Assembly: GCA_015065085.1 (NCBI GenBank)
Contig: SVQW01000001.1
Span: 104,258-168,257, forward strand
DNA length: 64,000 nucleotides
From: Oscillospiraceae bacterium
GTDB lineage: Bacteria; Bacillota; Clostridia; Oscillospirales; SIG627
Reading direction: 5' to 3'
Part shown: positions 1,809-62,814 of the stretch, piece by piece
How positions within the stretch are numbered: the stretch's first letter is position 1
How the letters are laid out: each line of letters starts with the position of its first letter
Translations under genes and position numbers: made by a program
Notes under the pieces: model-generated
Databases searched by the model: none
What the model was told of the DNA's origin: nothing
Seen by the model: only the letters and a program-made list of their open reading frames with translations

Positions 1809-3233
1809 TCAGTCTTTTACACCCATATTGTTAAGGGTTTCGGTAAGCTTTTTAGCTGCTTCGGGATCACCGATGTGCATGGAGTTGTAAGCTTCTTCAC
1901 TGCTGATGAAGCCTCTGTCCAGACCGTCAACACCGTGCCAGGTAACATTTGTGTAAATCGGGTCTATGTTGCCTGTTTCCTTTTCGCGCTTTGCAATGTG
2001 GTTTTCCATGCGCTTGGTGAGACATTCAACAACTTCGGGGTACTTGTCCGCAACGTTGTCGTATTCCTCGGGGTCGGAAATGAGGTTGTAAAGCTCTACT
2101 GCGGGCTTGAAGTGGAAATCGGGCTCAAGTGCACGGATAAGCTTCCACTCAGGGGTACGCCAGCCGTGCTTTCTCATCCAGGTAGCTTCGGTGATGTACA
2201 TTTCGCTTTCCTGAACGAATTCCTCACCGCGGTAGAGGTTCATAAGGTTGCGACCGTCAAAGGAAACATCAGTATTGATGTCGAGAATATCAAGAATTGT
2301 GGGCACGATATCCTTAGGCTGAACGAAATCCACAAATCTCTTTGCATTCAGTCTTTCGCCGTTAGCCAGCTTTCCTTTGTAACGGAACGCAAGAGGTACG
2401 GTGAGAGTGCAATCGTAAAGACCGTGATGGTCAAAATAGCAGTCGTGATCGTACAGGGTTTCACCGTGGTCGGAGGTGAATACCACCAGAGTATCTTCTT
2501 CCAGTCCAAGGCTGTCAAGACGGTCGAGAATCTGCTGGATGCAAGCGTCCATGTAAGCAACTGCGCCGTCGTACTGGGCAACTATGTACTCGGCATCGGT
2601 ACATCCTTCGGGGAACCAGGTCAGGAAGTAATCTCTGAAGGGCTTGAATTCGTACACCGGAACGAGTGTTTTGACCTCAGGGTCCTTTTCGTCTTTGGTG
2701 TAGAATACTCTGTCAAAAGGCATGGGAGGAAGATAAGGACTGTGAGGATCCATGTGACGCAGGAACAGGAACCAGGGCTTATCTTCGCTTGCAAGTCTTT
2801 CAAGCTCGGGTATGGCAACCCTGTTGCAGGCTTCGGCTTTGTGAGCTCTGCCGTCGTCCTGGTCAGGACCCCAGCCGGGGAATGCAAGATACTTGTCAAA
2901 ACCGCGTGCGGCAACGTGACCGGTAAAACCGATACAAGTAGTGTTATATCCGTTTTCTTTGAGAATCTCTGCAAGAGTCACACATCCGTCTGCATAGTCA
3001 CCTTTGTGACGCAGAGCAACGATACCTGTTGAGAAAAGATCCTTACCGGTGAGCATTGAAGCATATCCGGGGGAAGTGGGAATAGAAGGGCTGTAACAGT
3101 TATCGAAAACGATGCCGTCTTTCAGATATTTATCCATGTGGGGGGTAGTAAGTCTGTCATAGCCGTAAAGACTCATATGGTTTGCACGCATACTGTCGAT
3201 ACCGAAGAACAGAACATTTGGTTTTTTATTCAT
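1809..3233 (-). CDS. Sulfatase-family (alkaline-phosphatase superfamily) hydrolase lacking the Cys/Ser-x-P-x-R formylglycine motif
   Basis: PNVLFFGIDSMR metal-ligand start and ...SPSIPTSPGYASMLTG at the nucleophile position, plus downstream sulfatase-like blocks (FTSDHGE). RBS AAAGGAGATAAC lies upstream. Confidence 0.8.
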   Translation of the reverse strand: MNKKPNVLFFGIDSMRANHMSLYGYDRLTTPHMDKYLKDGIVFDNCYSPSIPTSPGYASMLTGKDLFSTGIVALRHKGDYADGCVTLAEILKENGYNTTCIGFTGHVAARGFDKYLAFPGWGPDQDDGRAHKAEACNRVAIPELERLASEDKPWFLFLRHMDPHSPYLPPMPFDRVFYTKDEKDPEVKTLVPVYEFKPFRDYFLTWFPEGCTDAEYIVAQYDGAVAYMDACIQQILDRLDSLGLEEDTLVVFTSDHGETLYDHDCYFDHHGLYDCTLTVPLAFRYKGKLANGERLNAKRFVDFVQPKDIVPTILDILDINTDVSFDGRNLMNLYRGEEFVQESEMYITEATWMRKHGWRTPEWKLIRALEPDFHFKPAVELYNLISDPEEYDNVADKYPEVVECLTKRMENHIAKREKETGNIDPIYTNVTWHGVDGLDRGFISSEEAYNSMHIGDPEAAKKLTETLNNMGVKD

Positions 3234-3258
3234 GTTGTTATCTCCTTTTTATCAGGGC

Positions 3259-4056
3259 TTATCTTGCGCCCAGTGCTTTGAGAAGTGAATTCATGTATCC
3301 GTAGCTTTCAGCTGCTATTGCCATGGCATTAATGGGATCCTGCTCGGGACCTATTACTTCGAGACATACAGGGCCGTCGTAGTTAACATCCACCATAGCC
3401 TTGAAATAACCTTTAAGGTCAATTTCGCCTCTGCCGCAAGCCTGGTTCATAGGTTCTCCGGGAGAAGGTCCGGGGCCTACGCAGTCACGAATGTGTACGT
3501 GCTTAACTCTGGAAATAACCTGAGGAAGAGCTTCGGCAGGGTTTTCACCGGCGCGGTGGATGTGGCTGGGGTCCATATCAACACCAAAGGCGTCGCAGGT
3601 GACACCCTCCATCATACGCAGAGTGGTGGGAGTGTTGTAAATAGCAGAGTTAACGTGAGCTTTGCAGCACAGTGTTACGCCGTATTCCTTTGCCTTTTGA
3701 GCAAGTACGTTTGTAACTTCGATGGATTCCAGAACAGACTGCTCGTCATCCATTATACCGCCGGGACCGATGTTAAGAATCGGAATACCTATTTCATTTG
3801 CAGCCTGGCAGGCTTTAATTATTCTGTTAATGTCGCGGGAAGCAACTTCTGAGGAAAGGATTTCAAGACCGTTTCTCTTGACACAGTCCTTGATATACTG
3901 AGCCTGCTCCTTCCAGTTGTTGAGATCAAGATGTGGATTCATGCCTTCAATGGCACAAATTTCGACGCCGTCATAGCCGGCTCTTTTTATGTAGCGGCAA
4001 GCATCGGAGAAAGCAACTGTCTTAAACAGTACGGAATTTACGCCGAGTTTAATCAT
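3259..4056 (-). CDS. Sugar phosphate isomerase/epimerase (xylose-isomerase-like TIM barrel)
   Basis: 265 aa with GYDGVEI...HVHIRD...ICLE-type blocks typical of the AP-endonuclease-2/xylose-isomerase-like TIM family. It is co-oriented and tightly spaced with the sulfatase-like gene. Confidence 0.8.
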   Translation of the reverse strand: MIKLGVNSVLFKTVAFSDACRYIKRAGYDGVEICAIEGMNPHLDLNNWKEQAQYIKDCVKRNGLEILSSEVASRDINRIIKACQAANEIGIPILNIGPGGIMDDEQSVLESIEVTNVLAQKAKEYGVTLCCKAHVNSAIYNTPTTLRMMEGVTCDAFGVDMDPSHIHRAGENPAEALPQVISRVKHVHIRDCVGPGPSPGEPMNQACGRGEIDLKGYFKAMVDVNYDGPVCLEVIGPEQDPINAMAIAAESYGYMNSLLKALGAR

Positions 4057-4257
4057 ATTCTTTCCTTTCCGGCATAATGCCTGAAAATTTTTGTCAACTC
4101 AATTATATAACAAAAAATAAATTATATCAACCCTTTTTTCAAAATTTGTAATATAAAAAACGAAAAAAAACAAAAGCCGAAAAAATTTTTGCAATTAAGG
4201 TTATTGCAAAAAATATTACACTGTGTTATAATGGTGCAAATTGCACAAGGAGCTTGT

Positions 4258-4905
4258 ATGAAAACAATCAATATAACCAATGGCGAATGGTTCAATAAAT
4301 ATTTTGAAAAGACATACAATCAACACGGAATACCATTTAACGAAGCAATGATGTCGGGTGTGGCTCCCGAACCGATATATGATGATGACTTTATCAGAAT
4401 ACGTGCGGCTGAAAACAATGTTACCGTGTCGGAATACGAAGAGAAAATGGCACTTTTCGGGGATTTTATAAGGAATACGTCACAGTACGAAAAGGTTGTT
4501 TTGTGGTTTGGAGCTGACTGCTTTTGCCGGATGAACATGATAACCGTGCTTGCGCTGATGGAAAACGCAGGGTGTAAAGCCAAGGTTTATTCGGCGGTGA
4601 CAGATGACGAAAGCTTTGAAATAAAACAACAGCCTCAGCCCGTATATCTTGGCACATGGCGCGAGATTTACCGAAACGTTCTGCAAATGAAACGACGTAT
4701 ATATTTCGGTGATGCAATACTGGACAATGCTGTTGAAATGTACCTTGATTACCTTGCTCCCGATGGAAGATTTGCGCGTTATATAAAGGAAAATCCCTAT
4801 AAAAGCGATGAAGAATTGCTTGTTGATATAATTAATATGAGTGCCGATTACGGACTCAGCGACATACAGATAAAAGCGCTTATAAAAAAGTACAGAGAGC
4901 AGTGA
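4258..4905 (+). CDS. Hypothetical protein, possibly DUF1835-like
   Basis: ATG at 4258 is preceded by CAAGGAG. VVLWFGADCFCRMNMITVLAL resembles the DUF1835 core. The call is from memory of the motif only. Confidence 0.45.
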   Translation: MKTINITNGEWFNKYFEKTYNQHGIPFNEAMMSGVAPEPIYDDDFIRIRAAENNVTVSEYEEKMALFGDFIRNTSQYEKVVLWFGADCFCRMNMITVLALMENAGCKAKVYSAVTDDESFEIKQQPQPVYLGTWREIYRNVLQMKRRIYFGDAILDNAVEMYLDYLAPDGRFARYIKENPYKSDEELLVDIINMSADYGLSDIQIKALIKKYREQ

Positions 4906-4928
4906 ATTTCACTGCTCTCTGTGTTTTT
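4893..4928 (+). terminator. Rho-independent terminator
   Basis: CAGAGAGCAGTGA-att-TCACTGCTCTCTG followed by TGTTTTT. It overlaps the stop codon at 4903-4905. Confidence 0.8.
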
Positions 4929-4936
4929 ATCGTTGT

Positions 4937-5584
4937 TCAATACTGAAGAAACTGTTTTACGGTGGCTTCAACATCCTTCGCTTTGAAAACGGAAGAACCC
5001 GCAACAATAACATTTGCACCGCACTCGGTTACAAGACCTAAGTTGTCCAGTGTAATACCGCCGTCAACTTCTATATCAAGCTCCGGATTGTGAACCTGCG
5101 CCATTTGTTTAACAGCCTTGATGCTTTCTATTGTTTCCGGAATGAAGCCCTGACCGCCGAATCCCGGCTCGACAGTCATGACAAGTACCATTTCAACATG
5201 CTTTATAAGGGATTCGAGAACAAAAGCGGGGGTCTTGGGTTTAATTGATATAGCCGCTTTTTTACCGCATGCATGTATTTTGTCAATAACCTCCATGTGA
5301 TTTTCACAGCTTTCGTAATGGAAGGTTATGATGTCGGAACCTATTTTTGCAAATGTTTCAATATAGCGAACGGGGTCGGTTATCATAAGATGGGTATCAA
5401 AAACCATTTTGGAAATAGGACGTAAGGACTGGATAACCGGAACACCGAAAGAAATATTGGGTACAAGCAATCCGTCCATAACGTCAAGATGGATGTACTG
5501 AGAGCCTGCGTCTTCAACTTTTTTTATTTCTTCGCCAAGTTTTGAAAAATCGCACGCCAGAATTGACGGAGAAAGTTTAATCAT
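4937..5584 (-). CDS. rpe: Ribulose-phosphate 3-epimerase
   Basis: MIKLSPSILACDFSKLGEEIKKVEDAGSQYIHLDVMDG... matches the canonical Rpe N-terminus over its full length. Confidence 0.95.
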   Translation of the reverse strand: MIKLSPSILACDFSKLGEEIKKVEDAGSQYIHLDVMDGLLVPNISFGVPVIQSLRPISKMVFDTHLMITDPVRYIETFAKIGSDIITFHYESCENHMEVIDKIHACGKKAAISIKPKTPAFVLESLIKHVEMVLVMTVEPGFGGQGFIPETIESIKAVKQMAQVHNPELDIEVDGGITLDNLGLVTECGANVIVAGSSVFKAKDVEATVKQFLQY

Positions 5585-58672: not shown

Positions 58673-58719
58673 AAACTATATTTAGTTATCAAAAAGCTAT
58701 TGACAACTAGATGTAGTAT
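58673..58719. promoter_or_regulatory. Tandem candidate NrdR boxes
   Basis: The cores CTATATTTAG (58676-58685) and CTAGATGTAG (58707-58716) fit the CwAtATaTwG core of the NrdR box as I recall it. They are 31 bp apart centre to centre. The second lies between the -35 and -10 elements. Confidence 0.55.
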
Positions 58720-58729
58720 GTGATATAAT
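58700..58729 (+). promoter_or_regulatory. nrdD promoter
   Basis: TTGACA (58700-58705), an 18-nt spacer, then TGaTATAAT (58721-58729). Confidence 0.6.
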
Positions 58730-58768: not shown

Positions 58769-61054
58769 ATGATACAGCAAATTAAAAAAAGAAACGGCGA
58801 TGTTGTTGATTTCGACCCGTTAAAAATCAGAGCCGCCATAAGTAAAGCCAATAAAGCAGGCGGGGAAAACGAAATTTCCGACGAGACCCTTGACTGTATA
58901 ACCAGACAGGTGGTTTCTGATATACCTAAGGACAGCGTTCCCACTGTGGAAGAAATACAAGATATAGTAGAGTCTACTCTTATTTCTTCGGGTTACGCGA
59001 AAACCGCAAAGGCGTATATTCTCTACCGTGCCGAGCACACCAAAATACGTCAGACCGAAAGTGACCTGATGGATATATTTAAGGAGCTTACCTTTTCCAG
59101 CGCAGCCGATGCGGATATCAAGCGTGAAAACGCCAATATTGATGCCGACACCGCTATGGGTACCATGCTCAAGTACGGCTCTGAGGGTGCTAAGTATTTT
59201 GTTGATAATTACATTCTTCCCAAGGATGTTGCCTCGGCTCATATGAACGGTGATATACATATCCACGACAAGGATTTTTATATGCTCACCGAAACCTGTT
59301 GCCAGATAAACCTTCTTGAGCTTTTTAAAAACGGATTTTCCACGGGACATGGATATCTGCGTGAGCCCAACGGAATAGGAAGCTATTCCGCACTGGCTTG
59401 TATAGCTATCCAGGCAAACCAGAACGAAATGCACGGCGGTCAGGGTATTCCCAATTTTGACTACTGCATGGCTCCCGGCGTTGCCAAGACATTCCGTAAA
59501 GAATACTTTAAATCTCTTGTAAAGTATATGTCTTTTAACCTTGGAAAAACAGCCGAGGAAGCACTCAAGATAATTGACAAAATCAAGCCTCAGATAAGTG
59601 AGTCGGTCGGAATCGGAAAGAAAGATGAAACACTTTCCGCACTCAATGCGGCGTTCTCCGGCTCATCGCTCAAACCCGCCGAAATTAAGGAAATGCATGA
59701 AAAAGCATTTGAAATGGCGTATTCCGATACCGAAAATCAGACATATCAGGCAATGGAGGCCTTCATTCATAACCTCAACACCATGAATTCCCGCGCAGGT
59801 GCACAGGTTCCTTTCAGCTCGGTGAACTACGGAACCGATACCTCTCCCGAGGCGAGAATGGTAATCAAGAATCTGCTTCTTGCCACCGATGAGGGCTTGG
59901 GAAATGGCGAAACTCCTATTTTCCCCGTACAGATTTTCAAGGTTAAGGAAGGCATCAACTACAACGAGGGCGATGTAAACTATGACCTCTACAAGCTGGC
60001 AATAAAGACATCTGCAAAGCGTCTTTTCCCCAACTTCAGCTTTATGGATGCTCCCTTTAATATGGAATACTATAAAGAGGGCGACTATAACACCGAGGTT
60101 GCGTACATGGGTTGCCGTACACGTGTAATGGGCAACGTTCATGACCCTGACAGACAGGTTACCTGCGGACGAGGAAACCTCAGCTTTACCTCTATAAACC
60201 TTCCCAGAATCGCTATCGAATCCAAGGGCGATCTTGCAAAATTCTATACTATACTTGATAAGCGTATAGACCTGGTTATCCGTCAGCTTATTAACCGTCT
60301 GCAGATTCAGTCCTCCAAAACTGTCAGAAACTATCCGTTCCTTATGGGACAGGGCGTGTGGATTGATTCAGAAAAGCTCGGCCCGGATGACAGTGTTGCA
60401 GAGGTACTTAAGCACGGTACTCTCAGCATGGGCTTTATAGGACTTGCCGAAACACTTAAGGTTCTCACCGGCTCTCATCACGGCGAAAGCGAAGCCTCCC
60501 AGAAGCTGGGTCTTGAGATAATCGGCTATATGAGACGCCGAATGGATAACGAATCCAAGAATCGCGGACTTAACTTTTCACTTCTTGCAACCCCCGCAGA
60601 GGGCCTCAGCGGACGATTTGTACGTATTGATAAAAAGCGATTCGGTATAATTCCCGGCGTTACCGACCGCGAATATTATACAAACTCTTTCCATATTCCC
60701 GTATATTTCCCTATCACTGCTTTCAAAAAAATCCAGCTTGAAGCACCTTACCATGCACTTACCAATGCCGGACACATCAGCTATGTTGAATTGGATGGTG
60801 ACACCTGCAAAAACCCCGAAGCTTTCGAATCGGTTATCCGCTGCATGAAGGAAAGCGGAATCGGCTACGGCTCGGTTAACCACCCTGTTGACCGCGACCC
60901 TGTTTGCGGCTACACCGGTGTTATTGATGATGTCTGCCCCCGTTGCGGAAGACGCGAAGGCGAGGAACTTACCCCTGCAAAATACAAAGAACTCAGAAAA
61001 CTTTATCCCAATATGCCTAATTTGGCAGGACAATACATACAAGGAGAAGAATAA
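58769..61054 (+). CDS. nrdD: Anaerobic ribonucleoside-triphosphate reductase large protein, lacking the glycyl-radical C-terminus
   Basis: N-terminal ATP-cone (IKKRNGDVVDFDPLKI) and a class III core. The C-terminal Cys cluster is PVCGYTGVIDDVCPRCG. The ORF stops at TAA 61052-61054, before any RxxGY glycyl-radical motif. Confidence 0.9.
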   Translation: MIQQIKKRNGDVVDFDPLKIRAAISKANKAGGENEISDETLDCITRQVVSDIPKDSVPTVEEIQDIVESTLISSGYAKTAKAYILYRAEHTKIRQTESDLMDIFKELTFSSAADADIKRENANIDADTAMGTMLKYGSEGAKYFVDNYILPKDVASAHMNGDIHIHDKDFYMLTETCCQINLLELFKNGFSTGHGYLREPNGIGSYSALACIAIQANQNEMHGGQGIPNFDYCMAPGVAKTFRKEYFKSLVKYMSFNLGKTAEEALKIIDKIKPQISESVGIGKKDETLSALNAAFSGSSLKPAEIKEMHEKAFEMAYSDTENQTYQAMEAFIHNLNTMNSRAGAQVPFSSVNYGTDTSPEARMVIKNLLLATDEGLGNGETPIFPVQIFKVKEGINYNEGDVNYDLYKLAIKTSAKRLFPNFSFMDAPFNMEYYKEGDYNTEVAYMGCRTRVMGNVHDPDRQVTCGRGNLSFTSINLPRIAIESKGDLAKFYTILDKRIDLVIRQLINRLQIQSSKTVRNYPFLMGQGVWIDSEKLGPDDSVAEVLKHGTLSMGFIGLAETLKVLTGSHHGESEASQKLGLEIIGYMRRRMDNESKNRGLNFSLLATPAEGLSGRFVRIDKKRFGIIPGVTDREYYTNSFHIPVYFPITAFKKIQLEAPYHALTNAGHISYVELDGDTCKNPEAFESVIRCMKESGIGYGSVNHPVDRDPVCGYTGVIDDVCPRCGRREGEELTPAKYKELRKLYPNMPNLAGQYIQGEE

Positions 61055-61055
61055 T

Positions 61056-61211
61056 ATGAATACAACAGAAAAGAATGCACTCGGAAAAGGAATAAAATTC
61101 GAAAGAATCCGCCGTATCACAGGCTATCTTGTTGGTACAACAGACCGTTTTAATGATGCGAAACGCGCAGAAGAGCGTGACCGTGTCCGTCATAGTCTGA
61201 GCACAAAATAA
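61056..61211 (+). CDS. Stand-alone 51-aa glycyl-radical domain of class III RNR
   Basis: MNTTEKNALGKGIKFERIRRITGYLVGTTDRFNDAKRAEERDRVRHSLSTK carries the RITGYL glycyl-radical loop. The ATG is 1 nt after the nrdD stop, and AAGGAG lies 9 nt upstream. Confidence 0.7.
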   Translation: MNTTEKNALGKGIKFERIRRITGYLVGTTDRFNDAKRAEERDRVRHSLSTK

Positions 61212-61214
61212 GCC

Positions 61215-61718
61215 ATGTCGGAACTTATGCTTTGCGGTATCGAATCGGAAAGTATAGTGGACGGCCCGGGCTTCAGATACGTTATATTCACTCAGGGCTG
61301 TCCACACAATTGTAAAGGTTGTCACAATCCGCAAACCCACCCTTTTGAGGGTGGGTTTAAAGCGGATATAGACCTGATACTTTCCGCTTTTGACGAAAAT
61401 CCGCTTCTTTGCGGTATAACCTTTTCGGGTGGTGAACCGTTTTGTCAGGCGTCGGAACTTTTGCCGCTGGCGCGTGCGGTAAGGGCTAAAAATAAAGGCG
61501 TTATGTCTTACAGTGGTTATACACTGGAGGAACTTTTAAAACTTTCGGAAGAGAATCCCGATATAATGGAACTTTTGAAGCTGTGCGACTTGCTTGTCGA
61601 CGGAAGATATGTTGAAGAACAACGCGACCTCACTTTGCGCTTCCGCGGCAGCCGCAATCAACGTGTTATTAACATGGGAGAATATTTTAAAACAGGAGAA
61701 ATAAAACTGTATGAGTAG
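61215..61718 (+). CDS. nrdG: Anaerobic ribonucleotide reductase activating radical-SAM protein
   Basis: ESIVDGPGFRYVIFTQGCPHNCKGCHNPQTH (CxxxCxxC cluster), and GITFSGGEP. Confidence 0.9.
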   Translation: MSELMLCGIESESIVDGPGFRYVIFTQGCPHNCKGCHNPQTHPFEGGFKADIDLILSAFDENPLLCGITFSGGEPFCQASELLPLARAVRAKNKGVMSYSGYTLEELLKLSEENPDIMELLKLCDLLVDGRYVEEQRDLTLRFRGSRNQRVINMGEYFKTGEIKLYE

Positions 61719-62757
61719 ATATGAAGTATCGGAAAATGTTGAATTTTCCCCCGATCTCAGCCATGAAAATATATTGCTGAACAGAAAAAAGCTTTTGTCA
61801 TTTGACCCCAATGCGGATTATCAGGTATGGAAAAATGCTGTCCGCGAGCGTCTTGATGATTTGCTCGGAGATATGCCTGAGAAGGTAGACCTCAAGGTGG
61901 AAGTGGAATGGGAAAAGGAAGAAGAAACATTTATTGAGCGTCGCTTTACTTTTTATTCTGAGTACCGCACACTGGTTCCTTGCCATCTGCTTATCCCCAA
62001 GACAGGCAAAGGCAAGTATCCTATGGTAATTTGTTTGCAGGGACACTCCAGTGGTATGCATATTTCGCTTGGCAGACCTAAATATGAAGGAGACGCGGCG
62101 CTTGTTGCCGACGGAGACAGAGATTTTGCGCCTCAGATAGTAAAAGAGGGCTATGCGGCTCTTGTTGTAGAACAGCGCGGCTTCGGTGAACGCCGTACAC
62201 CTAAGCATCATGGTGATAATAACACTACATGTGCCCATCCGTCCATGGTTGCACTGCTTTTGGGCAGAACTATGGCAAGAGAGCGCGGATGGGATATTTC
62301 CCGTGCTATCGATGCGGTAGGGGAGACCTTCAAGGATATCGACATGGATAAAATTGCTCTTATGGGCAACTCCGGCGGCGGAACGGCAACATATTATACT
62401 GCTTGTTTTGAACCGCGTATAAAGGTCGTAATGCCATCATGTGCGGTCTGCTCGTTTGATACATCTATAGGCACACTTCGCCACTGTGACTGTAATTACA
62501 TTCCCAGAATGGCAAAATACTTTGATATGGGTGAAATAGCATGCCTTATTGCACCACGTCCGCTCATTGTTGTCGCCGGTGCGAAGGACCACGGCTTCTT
62601 GTATCCCGGGGTAGAGAAGGTATACGATGTGATAAAGCAGATATACGAAAAAGAAGGAGCCCCCGAAAATTGTCAGCTTATCACCGGAGATGCAGGACAC
62701 CGTTTCTATGCTGATATTTCATGGCCTGTGTTCAGAAAATATTTTGTAGGCGAGTAA
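61711..62757 (+). CDS. Alpha/beta hydrolase (acetyl-xylan-esterase/dienelactone-hydrolase-like)
   Basis: Nucleophile elbow GNSGGG and a C-terminal GDAGHRF histidine block. It overlaps the nrdG stop by 8 nt. Confidence 0.7.
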   Translation: MSRYEVSENVEFSPDLSHENILLNRKKLLSFDPNADYQVWKNAVRERLDDLLGDMPEKVDLKVEVEWEKEEETFIERRFTFYSEYRTLVPCHLLIPKTGKGKYPMVICLQGHSSGMHISLGRPKYEGDAALVADGDRDFAPQIVKEGYAALVVEQRGFGERRTPKHHGDNNTTCAHPSMVALLLGRTMARERGWDISRAIDAVGETFKDIDMDKIALMGNSGGGTATYYTACFEPRIKVVMPSCAVCSFDTSIGTLRHCDCNYIPRMAKYFDMGEIACLIAPRPLIVVAGAKDHGFLYPGVEKVYDVIKQIYEKEGAPENCQLITGDAGHRFYADISWPVFRKYFVGE

Positions 62758-62781: not shown

Positions 62782-62814
62782 AAAGTCACCGAGCAATCGG
62801 TGACTTTATTTGTT
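62782..62814 (+). terminator. Terminator after the hydrolase gene
   Basis: AAAGTCACCGA-gcaa-TCGGTGACTTT followed by ATTTGTT. Confidence 0.75.

Follow-up and report, generated by a model that had tools for sequence, protein, structure and literature searches.

A probable two-subunit class III ribonucleotide reductase with its glycyl-radical loop on a separate 51-residue protein in gut anaerobes

The nrdD gene of an Oscillospiraceae bacterium, carried on a 64,000-nt stretch of contig SVQW01000001.1 (the window), raises the question of where a class III ribonucleotide reductase (RNR) keeps its radical. In this enzyme class the radical glycine (RxxGY) is expected at the C-terminus of the catalytic polypeptide NrdD. 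In the window, the motif was found on a separate open reading frame (ORF) placed between nrdD and the gene of the activase, nrdG. The original prediction had noticed this arrangement and offered three explanations: a genuine two-piece NrdD, a recoding event, or a sequencing or assembly error. Here, these explanations and further alternatives were evaluated using profile searches, structure prediction, a survey of relatives and the published literature.

The base-level description in the original prediction proved accurate. The 761-aa nrdD passes through its Cys cluster and ends at a TAA codon, and a single nucleotide separates this stop from the ATG of the 51-aa ORF, which lies in a different frame (offset +1) and is preceded at 9 nt by an AAGGAG within the nrdD 3' end. 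The product of this small ORF holds the glycyl-radical loop and the conserved tail, and nrdG begins 3 nt after its stop. The three consecutive cistrons lie on the + strand in the order nrdD, small ORF, nrdG (Table 1). Compared with an ordinary NrdD, the junction is longer by about 43 residues and additionally holds a stop codon, a ribosome-binding site and a start codon, with a change of frame. Moreover, the nrdG product matched TIGR02491 (NrdG) with E = 9.1e-43 and 145.8 bits, against a curated cut-off of 126.1, and also matched the Pfam families Fer4_12 and Radical_SAM, showing that the cognate activase of a class III RNR is encoded alongside.

The large ORF showed the features of a class III RNR. 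It scored 630 bits against PF13597 (NRDD; cut-off 26.2) and 1071.7 bits against NCBIfam NF005497 (cut-off 764), and its residues 1-730 cover positions 1-711 of the latter profile, which represents the fused family and has 746 positions. An ATP-cone (residues 4-91), the NRDD barrel (residues 120-730) and the flap motif ENANIDADT were recognized. The closest solved relative was Prevotella copri NrdD (8P23), to which the large ORF aligns up to chain residue 708, with 40-45% identity over Foldseek alignments. The catalytic residues Cys177, Cys449 (thiyl radical), Asn470 and Glu611 are all present, including the active-site cysteines and the formate-type Asn, and align with Cys171, Cys416, Asn435 and Glu581 of P. 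copri NrdD; residue roles were assigned after the description of that enzyme (PMC11226230). The Zn ribbon, CGYTGVIDDVCPRCG, contains three cysteines (Cys713, Cys723 and Cys726), and its first ligand position is Asp (R-D-P-V-C) compared with R-C-L-D-C in P. copri. This Asp is unrelated to the split, because fused relatives share it. The glycyl-radical loop was absent from the large subunit in both the sequence and the profile alignment. As judged from these residues, the large subunit appears to provide a full formate-type catalytic barrel, with nothing missing except the radical source.

The missing element was found in the small ORF, whose product is MNTTEKNALGKGIKFERIRRITGYLVGTTDRFNDAKRAEERDRVRHSLSTK. 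It consists of a variable N-terminus (residues 1-9), a Gly-radical hairpin (ERIRRI-TG23-YLVGT), a C-terminal helix (residues 34-42) and a tail, NDAKRAEERDRVRH. The radical glycine is G23 in FERIRRITGYLVG, encoded by GGC at 61122-61124. The product matched positions 533-562 of the 562 in PF13597 (E = 6.9e-8), and its residues 13-47 matched positions 710-744 of the 746 in NF005497 (E = 2.3e-12), a family match that lies far above chance level. No match to the Gly_radical family of pyruvate formate-lyase (PFL; PF01228, IPR011140) was obtained for the small ORF, and Pfam gave only PF13597 at E <= 0.01. Furthermore, residues 15-46 are matched by chain residues 707-738 of P. copri NrdD, with G23, Y24 and R31 opposite Gly711, Tyr712 and Arg719 (the numbering of the paper is the chain number minus 4). 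The two pieces, both of them under selection, together hold every NrdD element. In P. copri NrdD, the glycyl-radical domain comprises residues 676-739 and includes the Zn site (PMC11226230); therefore, the break in the split type represented here (type A) falls inside this domain and separates the Zn ribbon from the buried loop. The earlier statement that the glycyl-radical domain sits on a separate ORF holds for the Gly loop, the C-terminal helix and the tail, and has to be narrowed for the Zn ribbon, which stays on the large subunit.

The residues between the Cys cluster and the stop codon were also re-evaluated. The large ORF runs 33 residues past the Cys cluster before the TAA, and these had been described as about 30 unrelated residues. 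Residues are indeed present there, but they form a conserved extension specific to split-type large subunits, REGEELTPAKYKELRKLYPNMPNLAGQYIQGEE. The extension is missing from the fused-family profile, in which position 711 of NF005497 aligns to residue 730. In 59 type-A loci it measures 24-33 aa (mode 28-29) with the consensus REGEaVSiEKLnELRKKYPdvP, and fused relatives instead read CPKCHR-xEDDGGPKFERIRRITGY, with a linker of only 7-9 residues. The small subunits of the same 59 loci start with about 10 variable residues, followed by vGEGVkFERIRRITGYLVGTtDRFNnAKRAEErDRVKH.

The fit between the two products was evaluated using AlphaFold2. The products were joined head to tail as one artificial chain, and the alignment consisted of database representatives and small-subunit hits, with fused homologues included. 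The joined model had a predicted local distance difference test score (pLDDT) of 92.7 and a predicted template modelling score (pTM) of 0.89; the joined sequence run without an alignment gave a pLDDT of 35.6 and was of no use. The extension helix (residues 736-745) reached a pLDDT of about 86, and the radical hairpin (16-21 and 24-28 of the small subunit, G23 forming the tip) and its helix at 34-42 reached 80-86. A pLDDT below 50 was found only at residues 758-768 of the joined chain, which are the last 4 of the large and the first 7 of the small subunit. The top Foldseek match of the joined model was the active P. copri NrdD monomer with an ordered radical domain. In the fused P. copri enzyme, the radical domain is highly mobile and is invisible in dATP-inhibited states (PMC11226230). 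The model shows that the two pieces are structurally compatible and that their junction is floppy; because it is a single artificial chain and the alignment contained fused homologues, it speaks to compatibility and not to binding, a limit that counts against a two-subunit enzyme when the evidence is weighed below.

The breadth of the arrangement was determined with the large subunit as the query, one genome per species, and frame analysis of the 80 best loci. Among these species-level loci, 64 were split, 12 were fused and 4 ended at a contig edge. Checking the relatives for a shared stop and ribosome-binding site or a continuous frame showed that close relatives are not all fused: of the 76 complete loci the 64 are split, nearly all with a small ORF that has an ATG and a Shine-Dalgarno sequence of its own. 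Two consecutive ORFs encoding the catalytic polypeptide are conserved across species, as expected of a split RNR. The split form was found in the cultured isolates Coprococcus catus, C. intestinihominis, Hominiventricola aquisgranensis, Neglectibacter caecimuris, Scatolibacter rhodanostii, Anaerovibrio sp. RM50 and Desulfovibrio sp. ZJ369. It was also found on human-gut contigs with P0066, where a 754-aa NrdD is followed by a 16-nt gap, a 49-aa ORF and then an overlapping nrdG. In 67 of 78 loci the radical-loop ORF is followed by an NrdG-type ORF, which in most cases abuts or overlaps it.

With the small ORF as the query, more than 120 clusters (90% identity) were obtained of stand-alone homologues of 46-67 aa and 68-100% identity, one of them on 280 contigs. 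HMMER favours short targets, and the top 120 of this list were all short; therefore, the list was not used as evidence of prevalence, which was taken from the large-subunit scan. In addition, a search of 50%-identity representatives gave several large-subunit clusters that lack the radical loop and carry CPRCGRREGE and the tail (P0147, P0162, P0195, P0197, P0215 and others). Most of these representatives were intein-bearing or fragmentary, and the search was used for alignment rows and for the diversity of loop-less large subunits. As several distinct clusters of this kind exist, the split form is old and diverse.

The 1-nt spacing in the window bears on programmed recoding, in which a +1 frameshift or stop read-through near 61052 would give a fused NrdD of ~812 aa. 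The small-ORF frame is open from 60849, so that a +1 shift would yield the fusion, and the AAGGAG just upstream of the stop superficially resembles a prfB frameshift site. However, the sequence GAA GAA TAA offers no slippery codon, and the relatives behave differently. Over the split loci the distance from stop to ATG ranges from -44 to +334 nt and reaches 642 nt in Desulfovibrio sp. Dsv1; each of the three frame offsets and each of the three stop codons is represented. Some spacers between the cistrons hold inverted repeats or hairpins, a partial duplication, an IS-like (insertion sequence) ORF fragment or stops. The nearest relative (L005, 90% identical) is still split, although its stop is TGA, its gap measures 2 nt and its frame offset differs. 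Moreover, a Shine-Dalgarno-like sequence (AGGAGG, AGGAG, GGAGG, AGGA or AAGG) precedes the small-ORF ATG by 4-12 nt in all but one split locus, most commonly AGGAGG or AGGAG at 7-9 nt. Fused proteins with the extension do occur in databases, but all are singletons (one member, one contig) and several are visibly damaged by assembly. Because gaps, frames and stops vary so widely, no frameshift or read-through model fits; recoding is refuted as a general mechanism, and we consider it highly improbable. The pattern of start sites argues that the small gene is translated independently from its own Shine-Dalgarno sequence and ATG, and the stop-1 nt-start spacing in the window suggests translational coupling to termination of the large gene.

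Individual spacers had contents of their own. In Neglectibacter caecimuris (L073, 5298-5695), the spacer holds a partial tandem duplicate of the large-gene 3' end, interrupted by a palindromic element. That of Desulfovibrio sp. Dsv1 (L074, 2939-3656) contains a 145-aa ORF resembling an IS fragment, and that of a Lachnospiraceae metagenome-assembled genome (L040, 5262-5520) contains a long inverted repeat.

Sequencing or assembly error, or a decaying pseudogene, was evaluated next to recoding. Artefacts of this kind exist: ORFs of 77-85 aa that encode a Zn ribbon plus Gly loop are frameshifted or N-gapped fused genes. However, the protein identical to the 51-aa product (NCBI MBE6687799.1) is present on 26 contigs from NCBI, JGI, ENA and Logan assemblies, the same architecture recurs in 64 species-level genomes, the catalytic residues are intact, and the extension goes with the split and is absent in fused relatives. 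Furthermore, the radical-loop core (33-35 codons, 78 loci) is under strong purifying selection, with pS (synonymous) = 0.82, pN (nonsynonymous) = 0.087 and pN/pS of about 0.1; codon entropy was 1.44 bits at position 3 compared with 0.28 and 0.13 bits at positions 1 and 2. An error at this locus is refuted by these findings, and the probability that we leave to error or decay is negligible.

Two further candidates were rejected. A third split type, with the break before the Zn ribbon, was suggested by the 77-85 aa ORFs, some of them on 28-33 contigs, and was dismissed as assembly artefacts. In L085, L086 and L089 (proteins P0313 and P0317), N-runs or local frameshifts were found, and the small-ORF frame continues upstream in otherwise unbroken genes. 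Scaffolded metagenome assemblies yield recurrent false 77-78 aa genes for a small NrdD C-terminal part, on up to 33 contigs, which calls for caution when small radical-domain ORFs are mined. Fused intermediates that keep the extension were sought with a chimeric query. Only the singletons P0271-P0277 (one member and one contig each) were obtained, which do not form an established lineage; one is an obvious tandem-duplication artefact, and two Coprococcus-like sequences carry a 1-nt frame change in a 44-nt overlap.

The two polypeptides might also be joined after translation by protein trans-splicing or ligation. NrdD genes often host inteins, and 2-4 separate matching stretches occur in many 50%-identity representatives of 900-1700 aa. 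However, the ~43 aa of extra sequence are many fewer than a split intein needs, both termini consist of variable residues without a conserved nucleophile, and Pfam shows no intein domain. Joining by this route is scarcely credible.

Considering the gene architecture, breadth, selection, intact catalytic residues and structural compatibility, we judge that the locus probably encodes a naturally split, obligate two-subunit class III RNR, with one promoter and operon for three proteins: the catalytic subunit, the 51-aa radical subunit and NrdG. The genuine two-piece NrdD offered by the original prediction is borne out by the 64 of 76 split loci and by purifying selection. The small protein would be an obligate subunit because the large subunit carries no radical loop at all. 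We infer that the two subunits assemble in trans and that the radical resides on the small one.

An obligate subunit differs from a spare part. The original prediction had pointed to GrcA/YfiD, the PFL spare part, to which phage T4 Y06I can be added. The likeness holds for a small stand-alone glycyl-radical-loop protein, which is presumably activated by the activase of its parent and which, as presumed here, inserts into a large subunit without a functional loop. It does not extend to the parent: GrcA rescues an enzyme that has its own loop, whereas the adjacent large subunit here never has one. In addition, GrcA is a 127-aa homologue of the PFL C-terminus (Pfam Gly_radical) encoded apart from pflB, whereas the small subunit has 51 aa, belongs to PF13597, lacks PF01228 homology and is encoded in the same operon. 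A true spare part would require that the small protein rescue a separate full-length NrdD elsewhere and that the large ORF be a regulatory or degenerate paralogue. Stand-alone radical domains act in this way for PFL (PMC8683613), and NrdD-like proteins without a radical domain or a nearby nrdG exist (P0228, L091). However, no catalytic residue is missing from the large ORF, which also retains the ATP-cone, it directly precedes the small ORF and nrdG in the same operon in almost every split genome, and no second nrdD was found within the 64-kb window. A spare part is very unlikely on these grounds.

A second split type (type B) was found in five Selenomonadaceae/Anaerovibrio genomes (L034, L037, L054, L055 and L076). 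Its large subunit ends …CPRCGRTEAEHHQHIVVPRMNCCD, and its small subunit has 73-101 aa in the five genomes. The type-B small subunit carries an N-terminal domain of ~55 residues (…VNGIEVSVKG…SEEL…L.IS…DGSV.LDY…) without a Pfam match. Stand-alone type-B proteins (P0407-P0526; 94-105 aa) fell into more than 120 clusters, two of which lie on 503 and 345 contigs. In a bootstrapped neighbour-joining tree, type B grouped at 100% with a fused Selenomonas NrdD and at 90% with a further fused sequence from Negativicutes, apart from type A. Type B is most simply read as an independent fission, and the split appears from these groupings to have arisen at least twice. The type A of the Desulfovibrio loci is the clostridial one (67-69% identity), which suggests horizontal transfer.

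A phage also carries a divided gene. In Eggerthella phage EL753P1 (L093, OP172808.1, 1686-5147), an intein-bearing nrdD ends after the Zn ribbon with the extension …CPQCHRKEFEAVPEEYRDMVDEIRKSGMR. It is followed by a 102-aa ORF and then by a radical-loop ORF that is frameshifted inside the motif in the deposited record (…GFERIRRI* / MTTGYLTGS…); only the first part of this ORF is annotated, as a hypothetical protein.

Other unusual relatives were observed during the searches. The L091 gene at 3001-5031 (P0228), as well as P0192, P0231, P0233, P0245, P0253 and P0254, encode NrdD-like proteins of 666-696 aa with an ATP-cone and barrel that end just before the Zn ribbon, and several 50%-identity clusters end at the same point as P0228. 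The L091 gene is directly followed by a terminator hairpin, with no radical-loop ORF and no nrdG within 3 kb. Among P0121-P0270, many representatives have 900-1780 aa and match the query in 2-4 stretches, with breaks near query residues 450, 614 and 668, which is consistent with recurrent intein insertion sites.

How a two-subunit enzyme would work can be proposed from ordinary NrdD. NrdG with S-adenosylmethionine (SAM) would abstract the C-alpha hydrogen of Gly23 in the small subunit, and the hairpin would sit in the large-subunit barrel opposite Cys449, as the covalent loop does in ordinary NrdD. The radical would then pass from Gly to Cys to substrate, and nucleotides would be reduced with formate as the reductant (Asn470 type). 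Oxygen cleaves glycyl-radical enzymes at the radical glycine (PMC3019208, PMC13450708), and PFL cleaved by oxygen is restored by YfiD/GrcA once the PFL activase has activated this small protein (PMC8683613). In the split enzyme, such cleavage would cost only a replaceable 51-residue peptide, ~6% of the enzyme, and exchange should be easy and cheap because the lost part would be held non-covalently. Moreover, the free peptide would be an easy activase substrate, whereas a buried loop would otherwise need to swing out.

Oxygen repair and easier activation as the selective reason for keeping the split can be put forward more weakly, by analogy. We tentatively propose, at somewhat less than even confidence, that this is the first glycyl-radical enzyme with its radical glycine on an obligate, separately encoded peptide of ~50 residues, a 'consumable radical cartridge'. 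According to this proposal, it evolved at least twice (type A in Clostridia, with spread to Desulfovibrio and a phage, and type B in Selenomonadaceae). It would have been kept in strict gut anaerobes for re-arming a 760-residue reductase after oxygen damage by replacing 6% of it, and for NrdG activation of the free peptide.

Several observations weigh against the obligate two-subunit enzyme and its proposed benefit, in addition to the limit of the joined model given above. Fused and type-A forms are interleaved in the tree within Oscillospirales, and L066, a type-A locus, nests inside a fused clade at 89-92% bootstrap; therefore, re-fusion or recombination of a 3' cassette has happened, and the neighbour-joining bootstrap tree does not resolve the number of type-A origins or re-fusions. 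A fused NrdD is evidently also viable in similar organisms. No residues separating split from fused forms were found in NrdG, and the large subunit has only four such positions, all in the Zn ribbon. Such minimal co-adaptation is as compatible with a nearly neutral fission as with an adaptive one.

A neutral fission would mean that the two pieces work without benefit: an insertion with a stop and a start was tolerated, since the Gly loop binds tightly in the barrel, and was then inherited or transferred. The lack of distinguishing residues and the interleaving of fused and split forms among close relatives agree with this, and split class II and class I RNRs exist without a demonstrated advantage (PMC9669993, PMC3653736). 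However, in several families the type-A split goes with an extension that is conserved and constrained in length, and the arrangement persists over 40-60% sequence divergence of the large subunit. Furthermore, a structurally different split arose separately in Negativicutes and another occurs in a phage, and both fission types break at the same place, just before the oxygen-labile element. A neutral origin is unlikely in our estimate, although it retains appreciable weight.

The obligate two-subunit enzyme was also compared with known systems. With the single-chain class III RNRs of P. copri (8P23), phage T4 and E. coli it shares the ATP-cone, barrel, flap, active-site cysteines, formate-type Asn and Zn ribbon, the RITGY loop with its C-terminal helix and the adjacent NrdG, and the joined model superposes on the active P. 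copri monomer. It differs in a chain break that separates the Zn ribbon from the buried Gly loop, in a conserved extension of ~30 aa added to the large subunit and in a short variable N-terminus added to the small one. BssB and BssC of benzylsuccinate synthase and HpdC of 4-hydroxyphenylacetate decarboxylase are small subunits bound to a large glycyl-radical subunit. In contrast to the present case, the radical glycine of these enzymes stays on the large subunit (PMC12590467).

Other RNRs are divided as well. In class II NrdJa/NrdJb of Pseudomonas aeruginosa and class Ia NrdA of Aeromonas phage Aeh1, the catalytic polypeptide is likewise encoded by two consecutive ORFs and assembles non-covalently, and the N-terminal piece NrdJa has an extra C-terminal element proposed to aid interaction of the pieces (PMC9669993). 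These systems differ in RNR class, break point and cause, and neither parts the radical-bearing residue from the barrel: the Aeh1 gene is split by a homing-endonuclease gene, and NrdJb carries IscU-like and Zn-finger domains and no radical site. Interrupted nrdD genes are known from phages, namely the T4 intron, Lactococcus phage 949 and Aeromonas phage phiAS4 (PMC3653736). They also have more than one coding region, but each interruption is confined to a single phage and stems from an intron, an intein, a homing endonuclease or fragmentation without an explanation; none is a conserved break through which the Gly loop becomes a small protein with a ribosome-binding site of its own.

The searchable full-text literature, a scope that leaves out most subscription journals, yielded no account of a bacterial NrdD whose radical loop is detached, so that an earlier description is possible. 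A June 2026 review knows spare-part proteins only for formate lyases (PMC13450708), and a 2021 paper speculates on their existence in other glycyl-radical classes (PMC8683613); reviews of 2021 and 2026 raise this question outright. In the largest RNR phylogeny, every sequence of <400 residues was removed (PMC9531940), a filter that would hide the small subunits and leave large subunits that seem complete without being so. Pfam and NCBIfam (June 2026) contain no dedicated family for the small subunits, which are annotated in the source records as 'hypothetical protein' or 'ribonucleoside-triphosphate reductase'.

The coordinates of the locus are collected in Table 1. The nrdD promoter matches the consensus at 12 of 12 positions and is the best site of the region; a promoter and terminator scan revealed no comparable promoter and no terminator between the three cistrons. 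The palindromes that overlap it resemble what we take to be tandem NrdR boxes and may form an NrdR operator. The alpha/beta-hydrolase ORF behind nrdG is probably co-transcribed with the RNR genes without being part of the RNR, because it overlaps the nrdG stop and precedes the only terminator. It is not conserved beside nrdG in L001-L004. Rfam gave no relevant family between 57000 and 62000.

Table 1. Features of the nrdD locus, in window coordinates.
Feature	Position	Strand	Remarks
Two AACTA-N4-TAGT(T/A) palindromes	58674-58687 and 58705-58718	.	centres 31 bp apart; overlap promoter; read by eye
Sigma-70 type promoter, TTGACA-18 nt-TATAAT, extended -10 TG	58700-58729	+	40 nt upstream of nrdD
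nrdD, large subunit	58769-61054	+	761 aa; stop TAA 61052-61054
Split-specific C-terminal extension	60953-61051	+	residues 729-761; predicted helix 736-745
Shine-Dalgarno AAGGAG of small ORF	61041-61046	+	within large-ORF 3' end, 9 nt ahead of ATG
Small radical-loop ORF	61056-61211	+	51 codons; ATG 61056, stop TAA 61209-61211
nrdG, radical-SAM activase	61215-61718	+	167 aa; ATG 61215, 3 nt past small-ORF stop
Alpha/beta-hydrolase ORF (Abhydrolase_7 / glucuronyl-esterase-like)	61711-62757	+	348 aa; overlaps nrdG stop by 8 nt
Intrinsic terminator-like hairpin and T-run	62782-62807	+	first one downstream of promoter

The locus appears to represent a new architectural variant of a well-known enzyme that is widespread in gut anaerobes. 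The carriers include many abundant human- and animal-gut bacteria (Coprococcus, Lachnospiraceae, Oscillospiraceae and Selenomonadaceae), in which the small genes are often named 'hypothetical protein', a point of relevance to annotation. The principle of repair by a replaceable small protein, so far known for PFL only, would be extended to a second enzyme class, an essential anaerobic enzyme of DNA-precursor synthesis in which the loop is permanently separate. If the assignment of the radical to the small subunit holds, it would provide a natural substrate of 51 residues that can be synthesized, isotope-labelled and mutated and that docks in trans, making the access of the activase to a buried glycine testable. 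The arrangement may also bear on the oxygen tolerance of gut anaerobes.

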